From: an uncultured bacterium
GTDB lineage: Bacteria; Actinomycetota; Acidimicrobiia; Spongiisociales; UBA5794
Length of the DNA: 64,000 nt
Assembly: GCA_963801165.1 (NCBI GenBank)
Contig: CAWDDT010000010.1
Span: forward strand, 64,001-128,000
Direction of reading: 5' to 3'
The notes under the pieces are model-generated. The model saw only the letters and a program-made list of their open reading frames with translations. It did no database searches and was not told where the DNA came from. This document shows, piece after piece, positions 34,662 through 44,969 of the stretch (position 1 is its first letter; each line of letters begins with the position of its first letter). A program made the translations under genes and the position numbers.

Positions 34662-35117
34662 ATGCGCGTCGTGATCCAACGTGTCTCTGAGGCATCTGTC
34701 TCCGTAGACGGCTCTGTCGTCGGTGAGATCGGTCCCGGGCTGCTGGTGCTGCTCGGGGTCGGAGATGGTGACGGCCCCACGGACGCAGCGGCTCTGGTCG
34801 ACAAGATGCTGGATCTCCGCATTTTTCCCGACGAGGAGGGCCGGATGAACCTGTCGGTGGTCGACGTCGGAGGCGCTGTGCTCGTGGTCAGCCAGTTCAC
34901 CCTGCTTGCCGACGTTCGCAAGGGTCGGCGACCTTCATTCACCGCCGCGGCCGCTCCCGAGCAGGCATCCGGTCTGGTGGACGAGGTCGTCGCCCTGATC
35001 ACAGCCAGAGGAGTTCCTGTGGCGACCGGTGAGTTCGGGGCGATGATGCAGGTGAACCTCGTCAACTCCGGTCCGGTCACGATCGTGGTCGACGTTGCGG
35101 GCGGACGTGTTCAGTGA
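34662..35117 (+). CDS. dtd: D-aminoacyl-tRNA deacylase
   Basis: [25 protein letters not shown]. Confidence 0.95.
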
Positions 35118-38100
35118 GCCGTGAAGGCAGAACCTGCGGGACAGAACTTGATGAAGTCGCAGGAGTAGCACGCCTGTGACGGCGTCTGCGGGTATTCAGG
35201 ACCTGCGGCCTGTCCGAGAAGAGCCTCGAGGTGTCTGCGAGCTGTTGCCAGCCAGGACGCGTCGGCTGCGACGGTCACCTCCTCGAGATCGCCGCCTCCC
35301 AGATAGGCAAACGTGACCCTGATGGCTTGTGGCGGTTCGGGGGATAGCGCCTTGTCGATTGCCGCTACCCCATATGCCTCCAGCTGCACGATGGCTGCCG
35401 GGTTGCCCCTGTTACGGCCGGACTTGAAGTCGACGATCTCCCACACCCCCGGGTGTGGCTCATAGACGGCGTCGATGCGTCCCCTGATCCTGCCCGAAGA
35501 GAGGCCGATGTCAATCGGCGTCTCGACGAAGCGTGGCCGGGCGTCGGCGAACCGGGACGCGAGGTACACGCTATAGGGATCGGGGCCGTTGCCGGGAGGC
35601 TCGTCGGAATCGGTCACGTCATAGAGATCGTCGCTTATCTCGTCGAGCGGCATCTCGCCCCTGCCGTGCAGCTCGATGCGGCGGTGCACCTTGACGCCGC
35701 GTCGCATGGCCGCTGCCTGGCGACGTGGGAGCGGCTCGACCTCGGACCAGTAGAAACGCTGCGGGCACTGGGCAAGCGTCACGAGACCGGTTACAGAGGT
35801 ATCCACACCGGTTTCCTCCGACCGGGGCGGGGGAGGCTCAGGCATGTCGTCGAGGATCATCCGCATCTGGTCCACGGCCGCATCGTAAGACGTCGGATCC
35901 GCCCCGACCAGACTCTCCGGCCACCCGGTGTCGGCGAGCGTTGCCCGCAGCGCGTTCTCCCACCCGGTAGGAAAGAGCGGGTCGGGGGCGCCGGCAGCCG
36001 GCACGATCGACAAAGTCGCAGGGCGTTCCCCCGGATCGGCGGCTCGGACGTTCAGCGTGATCCCCGGGGCTCGGCCCACCGCATCGAGGATAGGGCTCGG
36101 GGGCTTTGGCCTCTGGGCCGTGCCGTACCAGTGTGCACCCGTCAGGTAGAGGCGTCGCTTGGCGCGGGTGACCGCCACATAGGCGGTACGCCATTCCTGC
36201 CGGTCGCGCACCGTACGCAGCGCAACCTGCCGCTCGTCATCGTCCAGCTCGGGATCGACCGGGGCCTCGAGACGCAGCCCGTATGGCACGAATCGAGCCT
36301 TGCTGACGGGATCGTCCAATGTGCCCCTGTCGAACGGGAACACCCCCTTGGCCAGGGTGGGGATGAAGACGGTGTCCCATTCGAGCCCTTTGGCACGGTG
36401 CGCGGTCAATAGCACCACAGCATCCTCTGAGCCGACGTTGGCCGTGTCGAGCTCGGCCGCCGAGCGTTCATCGACGATTAGCTCGAGATAGGCGAGAAAC
36501 GCCTGGAGGGTCGGTCTACCCCGAAGCGGGCTCCACTCCTCGGCGAGGTCGAGGAAGCGGAACAGGTTGACCCGGGCCGTCAACGCCGAGCCCGGATCCC
36601 TGGCTTCCACTTCGTTCCACATCCCTGTCTCGTCGAGAATCCGTCTGCACAGATCGACGAGCGACGAGCCCTGAGCCAGCTCGAGGAACCTCCGGTAGAG
36701 CTTTCGGAACGAGACGAGCCTGCTTCTCGCCTCGGGGCGGATACCGTCGATTTCCTCGAGCTGGTCGATTGCCTCAACAAGCGGCCACCCGAGATCGGGA
36801 TCATCTCCGAGCAGAGCACGATTGGGTCTGATCCAGCGGCTCAGCGGTGCCAGGTCGCGCAACCCGAGACGGTAGGCAGGCCCCAGCAGGATCCGTGCCA
36901 GAGCGATGGAATCCCCCGGTCGGTCGATTGTCCGCAGCCATGCGTGCAGATCGGCCACTTCGGGCAGATCGAGCAGGCCGCCGAGAGAGCCAACCTCGAC
37001 GGGGACGTCGAGTGCCTGGAGAGCGTCGCGCACGAGACCCATGTCACTGTTCTTGCGAAAGATGACGGCCATCTCGTTCCAGGCAACGTGCTCTTCCTCG
37101 TGGAGGCGGACTATTTCCTCGGCGATCCAGTCGGCTTCTGCAACGGTGGTCCTGAAGAATTCGGCAGCGACCGATCCGGGCGGTGCGGTTGCGATCGGAC
37201 GCAGCGGAGCAAACTGCGCGTCCCCGTACAGCTCGACGCGAAGCTCGTGAGCCGCCGCCAGGATTGCCGATCCCGAGCGTCGGTTCTCGGTCAGCGACAG
37301 GGTTGTTGCCGGAGTGCCGTCTTGCTCGGGGAAATGTACGGGGAAGTCGTCGAAGTTGGTGATCGACGCTCCGCGCCACTCGTATATCGTCTGGTCGGTG
37401 TCGCCCACCGCGGTCACCGGGAAACCGTCGCCAAAGACGGCACGGAGCAGCTCACGCTGTGCCGGATCCGTGTCCTGATACTCGTCGAGCAGGGCAACCT
37501 CGTAGCGCTGCCGGACCCGAGATGCGATCTCGAGGTGCCCGGTGAGTAGCTGGTGGGTGAGCCGGATCAGGTCTCCGTAGTCGAGGACCCCGAGCTCGCG
37601 TTTCGCCGCGTCGTAGCGCTGCACGATGCCGGCGAGTTCCAGCCGCTGGAGCGAGACGTCGTCGTCTCCACCCTTTGCAATCAATTCGCTGGCGGTGAGC
37701 AGGTTCCGAGCCAGCTGACCGCTGAGGTCGACAGCGGCATCGACCCGGGCAGGGATCCACGTCAGATCGAGCACTTCGTAGGAGCCTGTGGCGATTGCTT
37801 CATGGAACAGCTGTCTGACATACCCCGGGCCGACCACCTCGGTGTCGCGCTCGACGCCGATGATCGCACCGAACTCCTGAAGGATGCTGTACGCGAAGCC
37901 GTGATAGGTGGTCACCTCGACCTCGCGCCCGGATTCGGCCAGGAGCGATAGCACTTCGCGCAGCCTGCCGGCAAGCTCATCAGCCGCCTTGTTGGTGAAT
38001 GTGATGCCGATGGCGCGCTCCGGGCTGAGACCACCCTCGACCAGGTGAGCCAGACGGTGAACGATGGTGGTGGTCTTGCCGGTGCCTGCCCCGGCAATGA

Positions 38101-38164
38101 CCCGCAACGGCCGGAGCGGATAGCCGATGATCGCCTTCTGTTCTGGAGTCGGGACGAAGTTCAT
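35111..38164 (-). CDS. adnB: AdnB-type UvrD helicase + PD-(D/E)XK nuclease
   Basis: [29 protein letters not shown]...VDFKSG, C-terminal Cys cluster; ATGA overlap with upstream gene. Confidence 0.85.
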
Positions 38165-41151
38165 GCGAAACCCGGTCCGCCCTCGGCCCACGCCGGGCAT
38201 ACCTGGCGAAGCGAGCAACGTTCACAGTGGGTGCCCGGTTTCGGTGTCCAATCCTCGGATCGGATGCCTTCGGCGGCCAGCTGCAGGCGAGCTTCGACAT
38301 GGCTGAGAAGACCCATGTCGAACTTGCGTGTGGTGACACCCCTGGTCCCGTGCATCGGGTACCAGAGCTCGGCCCCGACTACCGGCCCGTGTGCATCGAG
38401 ATCCGAGTCGCGGTCGACGGCAAGCGCATAGAAGCCAAGCTGCAGGGATTCAGCGGCTTCTGCGATCTGAACGGGGTGCTTGCTGGTCTTGTAGTCGACA
38501 ATGGTCAAACCACCTGGTCCGCTGTCGATTCGGTCGATGCGACCGGTCCATTTGATGCCACCGACCTCGGCCTCGACGGTTCGCTCGAGGTCGAGGGCGC
38601 GACGCTTCCTGGTGGGCCAATTCTCGTAGAGACGGATCAACCCGTCGTGACCACGGTTCAGCCAGGAGTCGGCAAACGGACGGCCCCCGTAGTCGTTGGG
38701 GTCGAATCGCTCCCCGAGCTCGGTGAGAGCCGCGTCCAGCGTGCTGTGCTCTCGCCCCTGGTCGCGGGCGGTGCGTTCCACCGTCTCGAGAACATCGTGG
38801 ATCAGCGTACCGAAGTCAGCGTGGAGCGACGTGTCGGATCCGACTTTGAGACGGCGCTCGAGGGCATACCGTCGCGGGCAGTCCTCATACATTTGTGCCT
38901 GCGAGGGGGAGAGCACCACCTGGTCACCAATCAGGCCGTCGTCGGGTCCCCGGTCCCGGACACCGTTGAAGTCGGCAGCGGGGCGCAGCCCCCACTCCTC
39001 GCCGATGGCGAGGACTCGAAGGGCGGCGAGACGTGCCGGTCGCGGCGCAGCCACATCGACCAGGCAGCGACGCAGCGCGGCTTCGGCTTCGTGAGCCGTG
39101 ACAGGGAGCCGGCCACCCTCCGCGGGATGCGTTGGAGGGCACACGCTCACCCGGCCGGGTGGTCGGCCCGCATCGACCCCCACCCGGGCGGCGATTGTGG
39201 TGAAGAAGCGGCTGGGGCGGCCGGGTGCCTCGTCGAGACCACGTGCGGTGGCGGTCCAGATGACCCGGCGTCGGGCGCGGGTCATCGCCGTGTACGCCAA
39301 CCGGCTCTCCTCGCGAAGCCGGAAAGTCCGGTACTCCGCGGTATCAGCGGGGACGTGGGGCAACAGGTGTCGTACGCCGAGCAGCGAGTCCCGCGTACGG
39401 AGATCGGGAAATACCCCGTCAACTGCGTCGGCGATGAAGACCACGTCGAGTTCCAGCCCTTTTGCCTGGTGAAGAGTGGTCAGCGTGAGATAGTCGCCCT
39501 CCGGTCGGCGGTAGCTGAGCAGCGGCTGGGCTTCGAAATCCTCGCTCTCGGCGAGGCGGCGGTACTCGAGAAGTGTTCCCTGTGGATTGCGCTCCTCCCA
39601 GCGAACGAGCACCTGGGCCAACGATCGCCACGCCGCTCGCTCCTCAGCAGCCGCGGGGTCGGCAATGAGGCTCTCGACGCCGGGCAGAGTGCTCCACAGT
39701 TGCCACAGTCCATCGACGGCGGGAACGCTGGTGGCCCACCCGGGATCCTCGAGGAGGTCGGCGAGCCGGGACCACCCGGGGAGGGTCTCCCGGATCGCAC
39801 GAGACCAGGATGCGCTGACCCTGGCCTCCCGCTCCAGCGATCGAAACGCGCCGATTGTCAACCCGACTCGCGATCCGAGAAGCACCCGCCGCATTGCATT
39901 CTCCGCGGCGGTCGGCCCGTCGCATCCCGAAGCCGCGACGGCGAGGTCGAGTAGGAAGCGGACTGCGGGCTGGTCGGTGAGCCGGCTACCCGGTAGCTCG
40001 TGCGGTATGTGGCGGCGCTCCAACGCCCGGGAGAGGTCGGCAAGGAGCCGGCGTTTGCTGCGGACGAACACGCCGATTCGGCGGTAGGGGATACCTTCTG
40101 TGAGGTGGAGCCGTTGCGCCTCGGCCGATATCCATTCCGCTTCCTCGACTTGCTGGTCGAACCGGTACGCATCCACGACTCCCCGACCGGGGGCCGGGTG
40201 CACGGTTCCGGTCGCACCGGGAAGATCGCCGGTGGTCACTGCCACTGCCGCATCGAGGATGGCGGCCGGTGTGCGAAACGAGGTCGTCAGCAAGAAGCGG
40301 ATGGCGGGGGTTTCGGACGAGCCGAAATCATCCTCGAACGCGGCGACGTTCTCGACCGTGGCGCCCCGAAAGCTGTATATCGATTGGTAGGGGTCGGCGG
40401 CGGCGAGCGTGTGGCTGCCACCGCGTTGGAGTGCCTGCAGCAGCCGGACCTGGGCCGTCGTCGTGTCCTGGTATTCGTCAACCAGCACGTAGGTCTCAGT
40501 GTGCGCCGCAGCGAGGACGCCCTCTTCGAGCAGCGCGACGGCAGTGGAGATGAGAGTGCCGTAGTCGATGCGCCCCAGCTTGCGCAGCGCCCGTTGGTAT
40601 GTCGCGAGAAACTCCGGCAAACCGCGCCAATCGGCGCGCTCGAAACGGGCGATGGACTCGGGTGTGTTCATCTGCTCGGCTGAGCGCAAAATGAAGTCGG
40701 TCACCTCACCGGCAAAAGTCCGTGTGCCGAGAAGCTCGGCGAAGGCAGGGGACCAGGCGCGGCGGTCATCTTCTACCAGCAGTTCGTGCATCAGCGACAC
40801 CTGCTCGGGACCGGTGAGTATCTGCGGGTTCTCGCCCCATCCAGCGGCGACGCTGTTGATCTCGACCAGACGCGCAGCATAGGAGTGGAAGGTGGCGACA
40901 TCGAGAGCGCCGAGCGTATGGGTGATGCTCTGTCGAATCCGGCTGCGAACCTCGGCAACGCCGCGTCGGGAGAACCCGAGGACGGTGATCTGCTCAGGTC
41001 GTACCCCGGCAGCCGTGAGCAGATGGGTGGCCCGGCGGACCAGAAACTCCGTCTTTCCGGTCCCCGGACCGCCGACTACGAGCTGTGGGCCTGCGATGTG
41101 GGCCACGGCCTCCGGCCAGCCGTCGGGGTCGATCGAGATGGGGTCGTTCAC
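38161..41151 (-). CDS. adnA: AdnA-type UvrD helicase + PD-(D/E)XK nuclease
   Basis: GGPGTGKT, VDEYQD, HQAKGLE, GRIDRID...VDYKTS, CxxC; GTG start 41151 overlaps the upstream stop. Confidence 0.82.
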   Translation of the reverse strand: MNDPISIDPDGWPEAVAHIAGPQLVVGGPGTGKTEFLVRRATHLLTAAGVRPEQITVLGFSRRGVAEVRSRIRQSITHTLGALDVATFHSYAARLVEINSVAAGWGENPQILTGPEQVSLMHELLVEDDRRAWSPAFAELLGTRTFAGEVTDFILRSAEQMNTPESIARFERADWRGLPEFLATYQRALRKLGRIDYGTLISTAVALLEEGVLAAAHTETYVLVDEYQDTTTAQVRLLQALQRGGSHTLAAADPYQSIYSFRGATVENVAAFEDDFGSSETPAIRFLLTTSFRTPAAILDAAVAVTTGDLPGATGTVHPAPGRGVVDAYRFDQQVEEAEWISAEAQRLHLTEGIPYRRIGVFVRSKRRLLADLSRALERRHIPHELPGSRLTDQPAVRFLLDLAVAASGCDGPTAAENAMRRVLLGSRVGLTIGAFRSLEREARVSASWSRAIRETLPGWSRLADLLEDPGWATSVPAVDGLWQLWSTLPGVESLIADPAAAEERAAWRSLAQVLVRWEERNPQGTLLEYRRLAESEDFEAQPLLSYRRPEGDYLTLTTLHQAKGLELDVVFIADAVDGVFPDLRTRDSLLGVRHLLPHVPADTAEYRTFRLREESRLAYTAMTRARRRVIWTATARGLDEAPGRPSRFFTTIAARVGVDAGRPPGRVSVCPPTHPAEGGRLPVTAHEAEAALRRCLVDVAAPRPARLAALRVLAIGEEWGLRPAADFNGVRDRGPDDGLIGDQVVLSPSQAQMYEDCPRRYALERRLKVGSDTSLHADFGTLIHDVLETVERTARDQGREHSTLDAALTELGERFDPNDYGGRPFADSWLNRGHDGLIRLYENWPTRKRRALDLERTVEAEVGGIKWTGRIDRIDSGPGGLTIVDYKTSKHPVQIAEAAESLQLGFYALAVDRDSDLDAHGPVVGAELWYPMHGTRGVTTRKFDMGLLSHVEARLQLAAEGIRSEDWTPKPGTHCERCSLRQVCPAWAEGGPGFA

Positions 41152-41966
41152 GACGTCGCGGGTTGGCCCGGATCGGTTGCAAAAGCCGGGCACCGATCCT
41201 GGAACTGGCACCAGTTGCACAGCTTGCCCGGTCTTGCGGGGAAGTCGTTGTTGATGATGGCCCGGTTTATGGCCGCCCAGAGTGCCTCGAGCTTGCGCCG
41301 GGTTGCGTCGAGTTGCTGGTCGCTAACCGGGATCTCGTACACCGTGGGCCGGCCCAGGTACATGAGCCGCAAACGTACCGGGGTGCGCCCGGTGCGCGCC
41401 CTGATGAGCAGCGCGTAGATCTTCAATGCGAAGAAGGCGGGAATGGCGTACCGCTCGGGTGGGGCCGAGCCGGTCTTGTAATCGGTGATGACCAGACCGT
41501 CCGGTTCCTCTTCCATCCGATCGAGAATGCCGCGGATGGTTATCTCGCCGAGCTCCTCGGTCATGTCGAGCTCCCGATCGACCGGATCAAACGAGGTTGG
41601 ATCCTCGATCACGAAGTAGTTGGCGAGCACCGACAGACTATCGATGCCCCAGGCTCGCTCCTCCTCGACGGTGTCGAAGAGACCGGGGAACTCCTCGTCG
41701 CGCAGCTCGACCCATGCCTTGCGAAACAGCTCGTAGAGCGTTTCCGGGGTGCGGTTCTTCGGGGCGAGATCGAACAGCCGCTGCAGGGCGAGGTGAGCGG
41801 TCGTACCCCGGGCCTGATACACGGTGGGGGGCACCTCGATCTTGTCGATTGCCTTGTACTTGAACAGAAGCGGGCACACTTTGAAGTCCCCGGCCCGCGA
41901 GGGAGACAGCGTTTCGAGGATCGGAGCCGCAATTGTCTGTGTCGTGGTGTGATTTGTAGCTGTCAT
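41148..41966 (-). CDS. RecB-family PD-(D/E)XK exonuclease (standalone)
   Basis: LSPSRAGDFKVCPL, RGILDRM...TDYKTG, LCNWCQFQDRCP; start ATG 41966. Confidence 0.85.
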   Translation of the reverse strand: MTATNHTTTQTIAAPILETLSPSRAGDFKVCPLLFKYKAIDKIEVPPTVYQARGTTAHLALQRLFDLAPKNRTPETLYELFRKAWVELRDEEFPGLFDTVEEERAWGIDSLSVLANYFVIEDPTSFDPVDRELDMTEELGEITIRGILDRMEEEPDGLVITDYKTGSAPPERYAIPAFFALKIYALLIRARTGRTPVRLRLMYLGRPTVYEIPVSDQQLDATRRKLEALWAAINRAIINNDFPARPGKLCNWCQFQDRCPAFATDPGQPATS

Positions 41967-42006
41967 CGCCTTTCGACTATACGCCGCGCCACCGACAAGA
42001 ACCACA

Positions 42007-42032
42007 CGCGTGTAGTTATCGCGTGTAGTTAT
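42007..42032. repeat. 13-bp duplication CGCGTGTAGTTAT x2
   Basis: Exact direct duplication. Confidence 0.85.
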
Positions 42033-42044
42033 CGACAGGGAGAT

Positions 42045-42119
42045 CGCGAAATATTTGCCGAATTCGCGAAAACGAACCAGCCATCCAACTTGACTGCACA
42101 AAGCGGTCGGGCGTACGTT
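42045..42119 (+). promoter_or_regulatory. Putative sigma70-type promoter of ncRNA-1 with tandem CGCGAAA upstream motifs
   Basis: CGCGAAA 42045 and 42065; TTGACT 42090; 18-nt spacer; TACGTT 42114. Confidence 0.7.
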
Positions 42120-42124
42120 ATCGG

Positions 42125-42876
42125 TCCTCGAGGCTCCGACCATGGCGGAGTGGTTCTCGGAAGGAAAGGGATTGGGAAACCGGCCCTCTCCGGCACCGGG
42201 AACAACGGGATGGATACATCCCGAAGGGCACCCGGTCCCCCGGCGGAACTCCGGTTCCGGCGGAACCGAGGGTCCACGTCCGAGAGGCTTCGGCCTCGAA
42301 GACAACAGGTTGAACGGGTTTCGGCCCGGGAAACCGACAGGGCTCCGGCTCTGTCACCCGCCCTGCTACGGCAGAGCAAACCGGGAGGGCTTCGGCCCGA
42401 CCAGAAGGCCTCGGAGGGTGAAATCCTCCGAAGCAACGGGCGGCCTTCGGGCCACCCGGTCCTCCGAGTGAGGCGCACCGCCGCTGCGGTTGGGACTACG
42501 GTCTCACCACAGCGGGCAGACGTAACACGAAGGTGGACGAAACGCCGAGGCAATCGGCGGGACGAGGGTTTCCTCGGTGAGGGCAACGCCCGATCCGAGA
42601 AGGCTGCCGGGTCAAACCGAGCGGCAAGCCCTCCGACCAAGGGTTGCAGCGGTTTCCCCTGGTGGGAGCTTCGGCGCCCGCTAGCGGAGACGGCACGGCC
42701 GGCTGTACCGGGCTTCGGTCCGGTGACGACCGGGCGGGCCGGTGGGTGTCCTAACGGCCATCTACAAAGCAGCGGCTGGAAGCGGCCCGACTCCTCACGG
42801 AGAAGGTGCCCGACCAGAAGCGAGGATCCCCGAGAGGGTGGCGACTCCGGTCAAAACTCCCTCGGGGTTTCCTTTT
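42125..42876 (+). ncRNA. Putative large structured non-coding RNA (about 750 nt), family not recognised
   Basis: At least 11 UNCG-capped hairpins on the + strand plus other stems; upstream promoter; terminal long stem followed by a T-run; no credible CDS. Confidence 0.8.
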
Positions 42877-43005
42877 GTCACGAGGTTTGTCACGAGGTTT
42901 GTCACGAGGTTTGTCACGAGGTTTGTCACGAGGTTTGTCGCGAGGTTTGTCGCGAGGTTGTCGCGAGGGTTGCCGCGGAGGTTGCCGCGGAGGGTTGTCG
43001 AGAGG
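42874..43005. repeat. 12-bp tandem repeat TTTGTC(A/G)CGAGG, about 11 copies, degenerating rightwards
   Basis: Five exact TTTGTCACGAGG, two TTTGTCGCGAGG, then diverged copies. Confidence 0.95.
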
Positions 43006-43022
43006 GCTCGAAGCCTGTCGTT

Positions 43023-43679
43023 TCAGGTACACCCATCGAGCGGCTGGAGCAGCGTCACGGTGTCGTTGTCGTCCGACCCGCTCAGCAGACCCCGGAAGCC
43101 GGCAGAGACGGCCCGAAACGACCACACATCGAGTACCGCGTCTCCCTCGACCACCATATCGGCGCCGAATGCACTGCGGAGCGCGGCGACGGTCGTTCCG
43201 AGCCCAACGCCCTGTTCGGTCGTCAGGTCTAGACCACGCGGATCGATGCCGCCCTCGTTCTCGGAGAAGTCGTAACCGTAGGTATACGTGTAGAAGTATC
43301 CACCGAGGTCGGGAGCGCCGTCGTCGATGAAGATGGTCACGAGGCTACCCCAGCCGATGGCCCGCATCGTCGAGCCGGGGCACGAGCCATAGGCGTTCGG
43401 CTCCGACGGTATCCAGCCGCTATCCAGATCGGGGCCACCGACGAGTGCGGCGATGTCGTCCACGACCGTGTCAGGAGCGAGCCCGAAGCTCACCTCGCCG
43501 AGACCGTCGGGGGAGAGGGCTAGCTTCACCAGCGGGGCCGGGACCGTCGTTGTCGAATCCTGCGCGGCTCCGCATCCAGTGAGAAGGACGCACATGAGCA
43601 TCGCCGCGACTCGACGTCCCGCCGCCGGTCGAGCCCGGGCTGCCCGGGTGCACCCGACGATCCGCTTCTCTCGAGCCAA
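43023..43679 (-). CDS. Hypothetical lipoprotein (start uncertain, possibly about 43601)
   Basis: LLTGC lipobox followed by an acidic globular domain. Confidence 0.65.
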   Translation of the reverse strand: MAREKRIVGCTRAARARPAAGRRVAAMLMCVLLTGCGAAQDSTTTVPAPLVKLALSPDGLGEVSFGLAPDTVVDDIAALVGGPDLDSGWIPSEPNAYGSCPGSTMRAIGWGSLVTIFIDDGAPDLGGYFYTYTYGYDFSENEGGIDPRGLDLTTEQGVGLGTTVAALRSAFGADMVVEGDAVLDVWSFRAVSAGFRGLLSGSDDNDTVTLLQPLDGCT

Positions 43680-43765
43680 CTAGTACCTCCGGCGAGGACA
43701 CTACACCGGGACCCGGAAGGTCCCCTGCGCACGGGCTCTGGGCCGGATCGGGACCCCGGGGCACA

Positions 43766-43807
43766 TGAGTTCGGTGAGTGAATTCGGCGAGTGAGTTCGG
43801 CGAGTGA
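43766..43807. repeat. 13-bp repeat TGA(G/A)TTCGG(T/C)GAG x3
   Basis: Units at 43766, 43779 and 43792. Confidence 0.85.
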
Positions 43808-43870
43808 TAAGGAGGATTCGGTCGACTATTCGCGCCTGATCCGGGTATCGGAGCGGCGCCACGATCGGGT

Positions 43871-43945
43871 CGCGAAACAAAGCGGGAAAGCGCGAAATCA
43901 AGACACGGTTTTGGCTTGACCGCGGCATGGGCTACGCACTAACTT
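43871..43945 (+). promoter_or_regulatory. Putative sigma70-type promoter of ncRNA-2, same architecture as the ncRNA-1 promoter
   Basis: CGCGAAA 43871 and 43891; TTGACC 43916; 18-nt spacer; TAACTT 43940. Confidence 0.7.
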
Positions 43946-43951
43946 GGCTTT

Positions 43952-44218
43952 AGTCGATGAGGCGGGAAACCGCAGCAGAGACTCCAGGCCTCGCAAGGGG
44001 TTCTGGGATCTGGACGAGTCACCGGGCCGCGAGGTCGGGTGGCGACACCGCAAGGAAAGTCCGGGGACGAGCCCCAGTGGTTCGGCCTCACGGGCTGCGA
44101 AGGATCGCTGATCGGGACTTCGGTCCTGAGAGGCATCTCGGTTGAGCCGCAAGGTTCCGACCGAGAAGAGAGCCCCGAGAGGGTCGACGCTTCGGCGAGA
44201 ACTTTCTCGGGGTTTCTC
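43952..44218 (+). ncRNA. Putative structured non-coding RNA (about 270 nt), family not recognised
   Basis: Five GNRA and three UUCG hairpins; 3' stem homologous to that of ncRNA-1; upstream promoter. Confidence 0.75.
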
Positions 44219-44336
44219 GCGTCCGTAGTGGGCCGGACGACCAAAAACGCCGGCATCTGGCTCAAGGAATCGAGCGATCCGAAAATCTGCAAGCGGTGAT
44301 TGCGCGCGGCCAGGTCGAACGTCGTATCATTGCGCC

Positions 44337-44969
44337 ATGGCTTTTCCAGAGAACATCCTCACGGAAGATGAGACGATCGTCAGTCAGTTTCGACCGCACT
44401 GGAGGATGCTCGCCATCCCTGTGCTGTGGTTTATCGCCGGCATTGTTGCCATAGTCCTCGTGTCGGTCTATTCCTGGCTCGACGACTATTCGATCATCCG
44501 CTGGATCCTGATCGCAGCGCTAGTGCTTGCTTTGTTCCCGCTGGTGGTAAGCCCCGTTCTCCGGTGGGTGTTCACGTCCTACGTTCTCACCAGCGAGCGG
44601 CTGATGACGAGGACCGGGATGATCGCTCGCAGCGGCATCGAGTTGCCGCTGGCCAGCATCAACGACGTGCGCTTTCACCAGACGGTTCTCGAGCGTGTGC
44701 TGAAGTCGGGCGACCTCGTAATCGAGTCGGCAGGTGAGAGCGGGCAGAGCAGGTTCACCGATATCCCGCGCCCTGAGGAGTTCCAATCGCTGCTGTACCG
44801 GACCCGGGAACAGCAGCAACACAACAGCGCCGTAGAGCAGTCGGCAAAGGCCGCCGAAGTGACCCGCGACCCAACCGAGGAGTTGGAGAGAGCTGCCCGA
44901 CTACGCGATGACGGGGTGCTCTCTGAGGAGGAGTTCCAAGCCATGAAGCAGCGCATCCTCGGGACGTAG
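44337..44969 (+). CDS. Bacterial PH-domain membrane protein with C-terminal SHOCT domain
   Basis: RPHW, YVLTSERL...INDVRFHQTVLER, GVLSEEEFQAMKQRIL. Confidence 0.8.
   Translation: MAFPENILTEDETIVSQFRPHWRMLAIPVLWFIAGIVAIVLVSVYSWLDDYSIIRWILIAALVLALFPLVVSPVLRWVFTSYVLTSERLMTRTGMIARSGIELPLASINDVRFHQTVLERVLKSGDLVIESAGESGQSRFTDIPRPEEFQSLLYRTREQQQHNSAVEQSAKAAEVTRDPTEELERAARLRDDGVLSEEEFQAMKQRILGT

Follow-up and report, generated by a model that had tools for sequence, protein, structure and literature searches.

The CsrB, CsrC and RsmX, RsmY and RsmZ RNAs occur as several paralogs with a several-fold range of sizes and combine an activator site, Rho-independent terminators and repeated hairpins with low sequence conservation. 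In the protein-titrating RNAs of this kind (CsrB/RsmZ), the upstream site and the terminator are common to the paralogs and the hairpin bodies are poorly conserved. GlmY and GlmZ are encoded by two related genes with a common arrangement of activator sites and a conserved terminator, and among the larger bacterial RNAs, OLE and ROOL reach high abundance. To our knowledge, large structured bacterial RNAs of unknown function are few, and each one that was solved revealed new biology. OLE, ROOL and GOLLD are large 'ornate' bacterial non-coding RNAs (ncRNAs) with unknown or partly known functions (see also PMC12286853). Here we analyze a 64,000-nucleotide (nt) window from an uncultured bacterium (GTDB lineage Actinomycetota; Acidimicrobiia; Spongiisociales; UBA5794; assembly GCA_963801165.1, contig CAWDDT010000010.1, positions 64,001 to 128,000), in which an initial annotation had marked the interval 42125-42876 as an unrecognized structured RNA. 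We have hardly any doubt that this RNA, termed RNA1 (predicted primary transcript of ~750 nt, 42126..42876 on the + strand, with the -10 element and the U-tail used to set its start and end), is a real, expressed, structured and unclassified ncRNA and a member of an order-specific family. A second member, RNA2, is located ~1.1 kb downstream, and the family as such had been overlooked in the initial annotation.

The size comparison of RNA1 to GOLLD, ROOL and OLE drawn in that annotation was fair: all of them fall into a size class of roughly 600-800 nt, are encoded by stand-alone genes, contain many covarying helices and have no obvious function. Unlike these RNAs, RNA1 has no similarity to their Rfam models, occurs in Acidimicrobiia instead of Firmicutes, phages or the rumen and is not phage-associated. 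A further difference is its genus-limited body with a freely varying hairpin array, embedded in a size-variable family that is set by promoter and terminator modules. With CsrB/CsrC/RsmX-Y-Z, the RNA1 family has an analogous organization in common, namely the paralogs, sizes, upstream site, terminators and hairpin bodies, whereas the GGA-in-loop repeats are absent and any titrated partner would be a protein other than CsrA. RNA1 and RNA2 resemble 6S and Ms1 RNAs in their abundance, apparent stability, low sequence conservation and fixed synteny, but a rod with a central bubble is missing, the flanking genes are different from those of Ms1, and RNA1 is two to four times longer. As a sister pair with common upstream sites and terminator, RNA1 and RNA2 are analogous to GlmY/GlmZ, with which they have no sequence or structural likeness.

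Scanning 42125-42876 by script for hairpins with a TNCG loop and a stem of at least 3 bp yielded ten on the + strand (starting at 42244, 42284, 42315, 42336, 42363, 42387, 42442, 42491, 42706 and 42843) and none on the minus strand. This corresponds to 13.3 UNCG hairpins per kb, compared to 1.04 per kb per strand genome-wide. Eleven such hairpins had been listed initially; ten were recovered by the script and one, GC-TTCG-GC at 42668, has only two adjoining pairs, the hairpin near this position being the tip of the conserved helix 25 (42662-42681). A GATA-capped stem noted at 42206 is identical to the conserved helix 5 (42207-42222), and its loop is of the GNRA type in 14/14 species. The minimum free energy (MFE) of the + strand, -426.8 kcal/mol, corresponds to a z-score of -6.13, with none of 20 dinucleotide shuffles folding as well; the minus strand of the interval reached -389.0 kcal/mol (z -5.81). 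Folding z-scores on both strands, as the initial annotation had suggested, thus set the interval apart from shuffles but do not select a strand, because both strands score strongly. RNA1 is assigned to the + strand because of the UNCG loops, the invariant G-U pairs (e.g. alignment columns 1083-1104 and 688-785, in 14/14 sequences), the promoter and the terminator. The ends given initially, 42125 and 42876, proved nearly exact, with the -10 element TACGTT at 42114-42119 placing the start at ~42126 and the U-tail ending at ~42876. A 12-nt tandem repeat, TTTGTCRCGAGG, begins within the U-tail and fills the gap to the converging gene with ~11 copies (42874-43005). Because none of 13 orthologous loci carries this repeat, it is a strain-specific microsatellite.

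Transcripts of both RNAs are present in environmental RNA. Between 6 and 35% of the sampled words of 42000-44300 were contained in 24 salt-marsh metatranscriptome runs, which carry 24 study codes, all date from 2020 and represent one habitat, and which may thus belong to one campaign. The assembled contigs of four of these runs were mapped on 41300-44800, and all expression figures given here come from these four; the other 20 runs, with shares of 0.06-0.29, do not enter the evidence. In line with the expectation that metatranscriptomes would contain a transcript of about this extent, contigs of 571-704 nt covered just the RNA1 interval (42134-42836 in the four runs), with one differing letter. 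Contig depth, which is only an approximate value and a weak proxy for expression, was 296-1755 for RNA1, 265-686 for the contigs of 168-250 nt on RNA2 (43963-44181), and 2.3-3.6 for contigs on the neighboring bPH_2 gene. No contig of the four runs was placed on 41300-42118, 42938-43873 or 44225-44341, which leaves silence of these parts unproven as contigs drop rare sequence. The RNA contigs begin 8-17 nt after the predicted starts, and those of RNA1 stop at 42824-42836, within the first bases of the 3' hairpin. The true ends are not readable from assembled contigs, and this stop could be due to poor priming in a very stable hairpin or to processing. Adapter remnants were present at eight contig ends, all eight in one orientation, and presumably represent the Illumina read-1 adapter at low-coordinate ends and the read-2 adapter at high-coordinate ends. 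The single orientation indicates that the libraries were stranded and that RNA1 and RNA2 are transcribed from one strand, which would be the + strand under the usual deoxyuridine triphosphate (dUTP) convention and given these adapter identities.

Two sequence differences were seen in these contigs. At 42224, the A of the genome is replaced by G in each of the four RNA runs, at full contig depth in three of them and at 295.9 of 729.1 in run X1, which may be a strain difference or an edit of the adenosine-to-inosine type. In record 2 of X1, a contig with a depth of 433 carries 124 other letters in place of the 153 letters of 42227-42381, with both flanks matching. This contig comes from a co-occurring relative with a different hairpin array and shows that the variable region differs between populations within one sample.

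Of the 14 other genomes of the genus, 13 gave a match to the RNA1 body in a BLAST search over 40 relatives; the one without a match (G010) is 82% complete and split into 310 contigs. Four orthologs are full-length at 68-73% identity; the others gave fragmented matches, in which ~100 nt at the 5' end and ~330 nt of the 3' part are kept and the middle has diverged. The 14 sequences of the resulting alignment A1 have 687-890 nt including ~30 nt of flank, and their length differences consist of whole hairpins gained or lost. RNAalifold predicted 192 pairs on A1, of which 189 were used after removal of three spurious pairs that reach beyond the transcript. Standard pairs occupy 96.1% of the cells in these 189 pairs. 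Double-sided changes were found in 78 of them, compared to 41.1 +/- 3.8 with shuffled partners (0 of 500 shuffles as high) and 20-24 when the partner was slid by 1-3 columns; the structure was derived from the same alignment, which favors such a result, and the margin is large. The comparison of homologs that the initial annotation had called for thus revealed strong compensatory covariation and no codon-type conservation, and the alignment points to clear selection, both purifying and compensatory, on the RNA1 body within the genus. Its view that the interval contains no credible coding sequence (CDS) also holds, as no frame is conserved among the orthologs: of the 1986 indel runs counted in pairwise comparisons, no more than 238 had a length divisible by three, and the open reading frame (ORF) starting from the sole conserved ATG varies between 31 and 229 amino acids (aa) and loses its frame after ~9 codons. 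Long open frames do cross the region (715 aa on the + and 203 aa on the - strand), as is usual in high-GC DNA.

RNA1 did not match any known RNA family. A covariance-model scan of the 64-kb window with Rfam 15 gave no family at the gathering score, and a permissive scan of 41900-43100 returned chance-level matches only, the best being dauA with 22.4 bits (threshold 45, E 0.7), so that the initial expectation of no significant Rfam hit was borne out. Likewise, no Rfam match was obtained in 18 related loci with a total of 143 kb. The families without a match include OLE, GOLLD, ROOL, raiA, HEARO, group I and II introns, RNase P, transfer-messenger RNA (tmRNA), signal recognition particle (SRP) RNA and 6S RNA, and RNA2 had no Rfam match either. 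The initial statement that RNA1 is not ribosomal RNA (rRNA), tmRNA, RNase P or SRP RNA agrees with the location of RNase P, tmRNA, SRP and 16S genes on other contigs; with these present elsewhere in the genome, a diverged housekeeping RNA was ruled out for both RNA1 and RNA2. 6S RNA (RF00013) was not found in the whole genome, which is 98% complete. A group II intron was rejected in view of the separate promoter and terminator, the intergenic position and the lack of an Intron_gpII match at E 10 or better in 41900-43100. For RNA1, we also discarded a cis-regulatory leader or riboswitch, as the next gene (43023-43679) lies on the opposite strand, and a phage or mobile element, as the 3' module described below had no match in viral contigs and the genome holds only two syntenic copies. 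A literature search that covered mostly listings and abstracts revealed no description of RNA1-type RNAs or of the CGCGAAA box found upstream of them. We thus regard RNA1 and RNA2 as unclassified, having found neither a database family nor a paper for them.

The RNA1 body comprises three parts. The conserved 5' domain (helices 1-5, 42125..42228, + strand) has many invariant columns and is made up of a terminal hairpin starting at the very first bases, an internal loop rich in purines (CGGAAGGAA-GGA), a tip with the sequence GGGAAACC and a hairpin of the GNRA type; only three other loci were matched by its nhmmer profile. It is followed by a variable array of short, mostly C(UUCG)G-capped hairpins (helices 6-13, 42229..42432, + strand), the number of which varies by species through indels of hairpin size and the stems of which covary. 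The conserved 3' domain (helices 14-32, 42433..42821, + strand) contains multi-branch sub-domains at 42563-42634 and 42692-42765. The sequence GCCCGACCAGAAG is present twice (42395 and 42808) and GGGCUUCGGCCCG-like words three times within RNA1, and these recurring short words would fit growth of the RNA by local duplication. A scan for long-range covarying helices or pseudoknots in RNA1 gave only noise typical of GC-rich sequence.

RNA1 ends in a 3' module (helices 33-34, 42822..42876, + strand) with the sequence GAGGAU-CCCCGAGAGGG-U-(GGCGAC UCCG GUC)-AAAACUCCCUCGGGG-UUUCCUUUU. The module forms a long composite hairpin, in which an upstream purine run pairs with the U-tail, and these tail-to-purine pairs covary (columns 1068-1072 with 1116-1120). 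The hairpin and the UUUCCUUUU tail are conserved, and a simple terminator scan caught only the inner part of the hairpin. We infer that the module acts as an intrinsic terminator and also protects the 3' end. It can be described by the pattern CCCCGAGRGGG-hairpin-YYCUCGGGG-U-tail, present at 42828-42870, and RNA1 scores 67.2 bits with a covariance model (R1) of the module. Exactly two copies exist in the genome of the window, one in RNA1 and one in RNA2: the last ~45 nt of RNA1 recur at 44173-44215, at the end of RNA2.

The RNA2 unit (43871..44218, + strand) is composed of two boxes (43871-43877 and 43891-43897), a -35 element (43916-43921), a -10 element (43940-43945) and the 3' module from 44165 on. 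Its promoter, TTGACC-N18-TAACTT, has the same layout as that of RNA1, and the predicted transcript of ~265 nt would extend from ~43952 to ~44218 (fold z -4.7). All 14 other genomes of the genus contain RNA2, in which the core GGGAAGUCCGGGG...CCCCACGGGC is highly conserved and 17 of 93 predicted pairs show double changes. With the bPH_2 gene following in the same orientation after ~120 nt, RNA2 might also act as a bPH_2 leader. The likeness between RNA1 and RNA2 is confined to the promoter, the motif CCGACC-R-GAAG before the terminator and the 3' module. In other genera, the 3' module ends RNAs with quite different bodies (e.g. at the loci L016-L021), and the same upstream arrangement recurs, with CGCGAAA boxes ~20 nt apart, TTGAC(N), 18 nt and TAnnTT.

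Scanning one genome per species for the module pattern yielded at least 117 stretches, which hold 157 modules among the matches listed. Among these matches, a double box was present upstream of 106 of the 126 modules with at least 1000 nt of upstream sequence. Nearly all stretches are labelled as metagenome-assembled genomes (MAGs) of Acidimicrobiia or Actinomycetota, six as Acidobacteriota and at least two as Firmicutes (Faecalibacterium, Lawsonibacter); the Firmicutes-labelled matches were taken as chance. The loci labelled 'uncultured Acidobacteriota' are L040, L055, L067, L069, L096 and L099. In L067 and L069, the syntenic locus is complete, including the nuclease and bPH_2 genes, and the Acidobacteriota labels of these MAGs look doubtful. 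In an evenly drawn sample of the class, the strict pattern was detected in 87 of 401 genomes, all from the order of the window, for which 109 genomes were sampled besides that of the window (G000). Split by families of the order, it was present in 22/25 (f1), 41/48 (f3), 10/12 (f9), 5/9 (f12), 3/3 (f5) and 5/5 (f6) genomes, and the pattern scan found none in f10 (0/5) and f11 (0/2). None was detected in 291 genomes of other orders, and a reversed-pattern control gave no match. The covariance model R1, built from 70 sequences, scored 57-75 bits twice per genome in 5/5 genomes of the order among 151 of the phylum, compared to only 27-39 bits in three other genomes of the phylum outside the order. 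Viral contigs contained no 3' module. By pattern, the copy number is 1-4 per genome. In some genomes, three family members are arranged in tandem with a spacing of 263-693 nt (G028:C104:109442-110587, G321:C69:160765-162192 and G414:C24:20168-20735), their 3' modules being identical in G028 and G321 and differing by a few bases in G414. These tandem members look like recent local duplications.

The genes around the two RNAs are conserved as well. On the left, a PD-(D/E)XK nuclease gene (Pfam; 41148..41966, - strand) is divergent from RNA1 and forms a conserved border; it is followed by two AdnAB-like genes with UvrD-helicase and PD-(D/E)XK domains (Pfam; 38161-41220 and 35111-38218, - strand). 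The conserved right border is a membrane-protein gene with bPH_2 and SHOCT domains (Pfam; 44337..44969, + strand), which starts ~120 nt after the RNA2 terminator. Between the two RNAs, an ORF without a Pfam match (43023-43679, - strand) converges on RNA1. Among the matches listed for 117 loci, homologs of the nuclease were present in 68, of AdnB in 51 and of bPH_2 in 63. The usual order is AdnB, nuclease, then divergently RNA-A and RNA-B, then bPH_2, with RNA1 at position A and RNA2 at position B. A gap of 80-400 nt always separates the end of RNA-B from bPH_2, and both have the same orientation. Second box and module start are 117-783 nt apart at position A (36 units) and 238-614 nt apart at position B (34 units), where five further units fell into both classes and one position-A entry of 1102 nt represents a second module behind the same box. 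The length of the RNA at position A ranges from ~110 to ~860 nt. At one locus (L016), another short repeat, AGTCTCC-like, was seen after the position-A terminator.

The commonest form at position A has ~145 nt and consists of three hairpins and the module (L033, L041, L048, L050, L054, L067, L069, L073, L074, L086, L088, L103, L106, L110, L113, L121, L126 and L128). Its apical stretch CYGGGGGCCCGCUUUCCYGG (Y = C/U), which holds the palindrome GGGCCC, is invariant in 18/18 aligned sequences, and 21 of its 47 predicted pairs show double changes, making it a good candidate for a base-pairing or dimerizing small RNA (sRNA). Because nhmmer profiles of the three RNA1 domains matched only L052, L060 and L078 among 123 loci, the 750-nt body is, judged by these profiles, specific to the genus or its closest kin. 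Orthology of RNA1 with the 145-nt form rests on position, promoter and terminator, the two having no alignable sequence, and RNA1 is the genus-specific, hairpin-expanded occupant of position A.

Upstream of RNA1, two direct CGCGAAA boxes (42045-42051 and 42065-42071, + strand) are spaced 20 nt start to start and centred near -60/-80, forming a putative activator or UP-like site. They are situated in the divergent region common with the PD-(D/E)XK gene, 79-105 nt from the start codon of the nuclease/AdnAB operon. Between the start of the nuclease gene and these boxes, there is a perfect 13-nt direct repeat, CGCGTGTAGTTAT, with 2.2 copies (42007-42034), which may be an operator of the divergent operon. 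The predicted core promoter (42090..42119, + strand) comprises a -35 element TTGACT (42090-42095), an 18-nt spacer and the -10 element TACGTT (42114-42119), which is nearly invariant across 14 orthologs and has the form TAnnnT that we take to be the actinobacterial -10 element. A scan with the E. coli consensus called no promoter here, this consensus being uninformative for the organism. In the whole genome (4.55 Mb), five double CGCGAAA boxes were counted. One each is located upstream of RNA1, of RNA2, of dnaA and of a gene with a LexA box, and the fifth (C9:383076, within a protease-like CDS) is probably due to chance.

The copy at dnaA (G000:C5:497824-497850, L022/L183) lies ~260 nt upstream of the longest dnaA open frame and is present in 21 of 30 loci of relatives, comprising every locus of family f1 except a truncated one, and in none of nine loci from families other than f1. 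It suggests a regulator common to dnaA and the RNA genes. The copy at the LexA-box gene (G000:C9:406036-406110, L023/L214) precedes a 269-aa protein of no clear family with a weak DUF4349 match. The LexA-type box CGAACGTGTGTTCG upstream of this gene, CGAAC-N4-GTTCG, is conserved in 17 of 19 homologous loci and the double CGCGAAA box in 6 of 8 loci of the genus. The gene looks like an SOS gene drawn into the box regulon of RNA1 and RNA2. The boxes were absent from the promoters of rRNA, RNase P, tmRNA and SRP RNA in the genome of the window. A box-binding factor might therefore couple the RNAs to replication or repair genes. Among the publications seen, mostly as listings or abstracts, we found no paper linking the CGCGAAA motif to a regulator.

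Our favored explanation of RNA1 as a whole, to which we assign a probability of roughly 0.5, starts from a transcript that would be made from a separate promoter and end at the hairpin-plus-U-tail module. With both ends locked in helices and a body of hyperstable hairpins, RNA1 should be long-lived and accumulate to high levels. Its stability may derive from the paired ends, in that helix 1 involves the very first bases of the transcript and the pairing between U-tail and purines covaries in RNA1 as well as in the 145-nt form. RNA1 would act in trans, because no gene follows it on its strand, and it would do so by binding a protein, either titrating or scaffolding its partner. The conserved 5' and 3' domains and the common 3' module would provide the contact surfaces, and the variable array would be a tolerated expansion. 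The upstream boxes would couple RNA synthesis to dnaA and, in this genus, to the LexA-box gene, and in this way to growth or replication state. By analogy, the pattern of the family, with 1-4 paralogs, a common upstream site and terminator, and variable bodies, may be that of CsrB/RsmZ. For the protein-binding mechanism itself, our expectation is lower, and we put it forward tentatively as somewhat less than an even bet. Going beyond RNA1, and at the more speculative end of what we propose, the family may form an order-wide modular RNA class, in which a fixed chassis (boxes and 3' handle) carries a freely evolving body that has grown about five-fold here. It would constitute a new riboregulatory system tied to replication or DNA-damage state, with a protein reading the 3' handle and RNA1 as a large ribonucleoprotein or RNA assembly. 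Such a tie is consistent with the boxes before dnaA, the LexA-box gene and the adjoining AdnAB operon.

Several observations weigh against this explanation. No partner protein was identified for RNA1, and neither Hfq nor Ro60/TROVE was found in the 98%-complete genome. The one candidate examined was CsrA, a clear homolog of which is encoded in the genome (G000:C11:429832-429987, L213, 92.9 bits), possibly in a flagellar fliW-csrA context. Its occurrence in 95 of 401 genomes of the class is patchy and unrelated to the RNA family, however: within the order, CsrA was detected in 14 of 109 genomes besides G000 (f1 4/25, f3 10/48, f9 0/12, f12 0/9, f5 0/3, f6 0/5), and it is frequent in orders without the RNAs (f21 20/21, f28 17/17). 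RNA1 contains 21 GGA and 21 TCC, and only four GGA are predicted to be mostly unpaired. In 120 family bodies, GGA reached 4.15 per 100 nt versus 1.69 for TCC and was placed in purine-rich linkers. We rejected a CsrA sponge, as CsrA is not co-distributed with the family and RNA1 has UNCG or GNRA loops and no exposed GGA repeats. A k-mer search of 118 bodies revealed only tetraloop words in common and no evident shared binding site, the 3' module being the sole part found in all members. The invariance of the module is partly given by construction, as many loci were picked by pattern; RNA1 and RNA2 orthologs found by BLAST independently of the pattern show the same module conservation. The abundance of RNA1 was estimated from assembled contigs rather than raw reads, and these contigs stop where the 3' hairpin starts. 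Finally, RNA1 and RNA2 have multi-hairpin MFE and consensus folds and are not 6S-like rods.

Among the alternatives, we consider it unlikely, though worth attention, that RNA1 and its relatives are base-pairing riboregulators similar to the actinobacterial 6C RNA, which use single-stranded loops as seeds for messenger RNAs. The ~145-nt form with its three hairpins, terminator and invariant C/U-rich apical stretch (18/18) has the appearance of an sRNA, promoters and terminators throughout the family are sRNA-like, and the A- and G-rich unpaired positions of the family would be available for pairing. RNA1 itself lacks this invariant apical loop, its GGCCCG stretch is part of a stem (helix 31), most of its loops are closed UNCG or GNRA tetraloops and thus poor seeds, and 750 nt far exceed the needs of a seed carrier. 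For the 145-nt form, a base-pairing role is plausible; for RNA1, it is less so. Even less probable in our view is an RNA machine of the OLE/ROOL/GOLLD type with a defined tertiary fold, possibly a homo-oligomer or ribozyme. Such a machine would be in line with the size, the many covarying helices, the multi-branch sub-domains, the high contig depth and the invariant junction nucleotides in the 5' (~100 nt) and 3' (~390 nt) domains. It is at odds with a body that is kept only within one genus, with the ~145 nt at the same position across most of the order, and with the free gain and loss of hairpins in the middle third, which would not be expected of a tightly packed fold; moreover, our scan supported no long-range helices or pseudoknots, and no large-RNA family of Rfam was matched.

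That RNA1 and/or RNA2 could be the RNA polymerase-binding 6S or Ms1 equivalent of the order is likewise improbable, and slightly more so than an RNA machine. RF00013 was not found in the 98%-complete genome, and both RNAs combine high abundance in contigs with rapid sequence evolution and a fixed synteny, but neither of them folds as a long rod with a central bubble. The flanking genes, encoding the PD-(D/E)XK nuclease, the ORF without a Pfam match and bPH_2, also differ from the Ms1 synteny, which consists of a HAD-IB hydrolase (phosphoserine phosphatase) and an oxidoreductase (PMC9130861); the main text of this source has no occurrence of Acidimicrobiia. We see very little room for a strongly transcribed, cis-acting promoter-terminator cassette whose product is of minor importance and which serves to insulate or regulate bPH_2 or the divergent AdnAB/nuclease operon, with RNA-B alternatively being the bPH_2 leader and the hairpins only preventing R-loops. 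Conservation of promoter and terminator indeed exceeds that of the bodies by far, the boxes are placed in the region common with the divergent nuclease gene, and RNA-B always precedes bPH_2 at short distance on the same strand. The purifying and compensatory selection on the RNA1 body within the genus, the converging orientation of the next gene, with none following on the same strand, and the construction of both RNA1 ends for stability speak against such a cassette. The notion that there is no RNA gene at all, and that the interval represents a degenerate protein gene, a mobile element or an assembly artefact, could draw on the long open frames of 715 and 203 aa. Judging by these data, it is refuted, since no frame is conserved, the module has no match in viral contigs, the locus is present as a single copy at a syntenic site, and it was assembled independently in four RNA runs and 13 other genomes.

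A structured bacterial ncRNA is a known kind of object. New are the modular family, the spread of the box-to-module distance at one locus, which is approximately six-fold (117-783 nt), and a promoter element that also occurs at dnaA. Annotation pipelines leave these RNA loci blank, and the alignments A1-A4 together with the covariance model R1 could seed new Rfam families. RNA1 also offers good handles, with at least 150 sampled family members, a defined promoter element, a 3' handle and conserved neighbors, and the natural size series from ~110 to ~860 nt at one position shows which parts are dispensable. Acidimicrobiia are widespread and mostly uncultured, and we found no ncRNA described for them in the literature, seen mostly as listings and abstracts. 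The presence of the box before dnaA points to an unrecognized regulator of replication-linked genes in this class. If the family indeed constitutes an order-wide riboregulatory class, it would provide a traceable evolutionary path from a 145-nt sRNA to RNA1, an RNA similar to OLE, ROOL and GOLLD.

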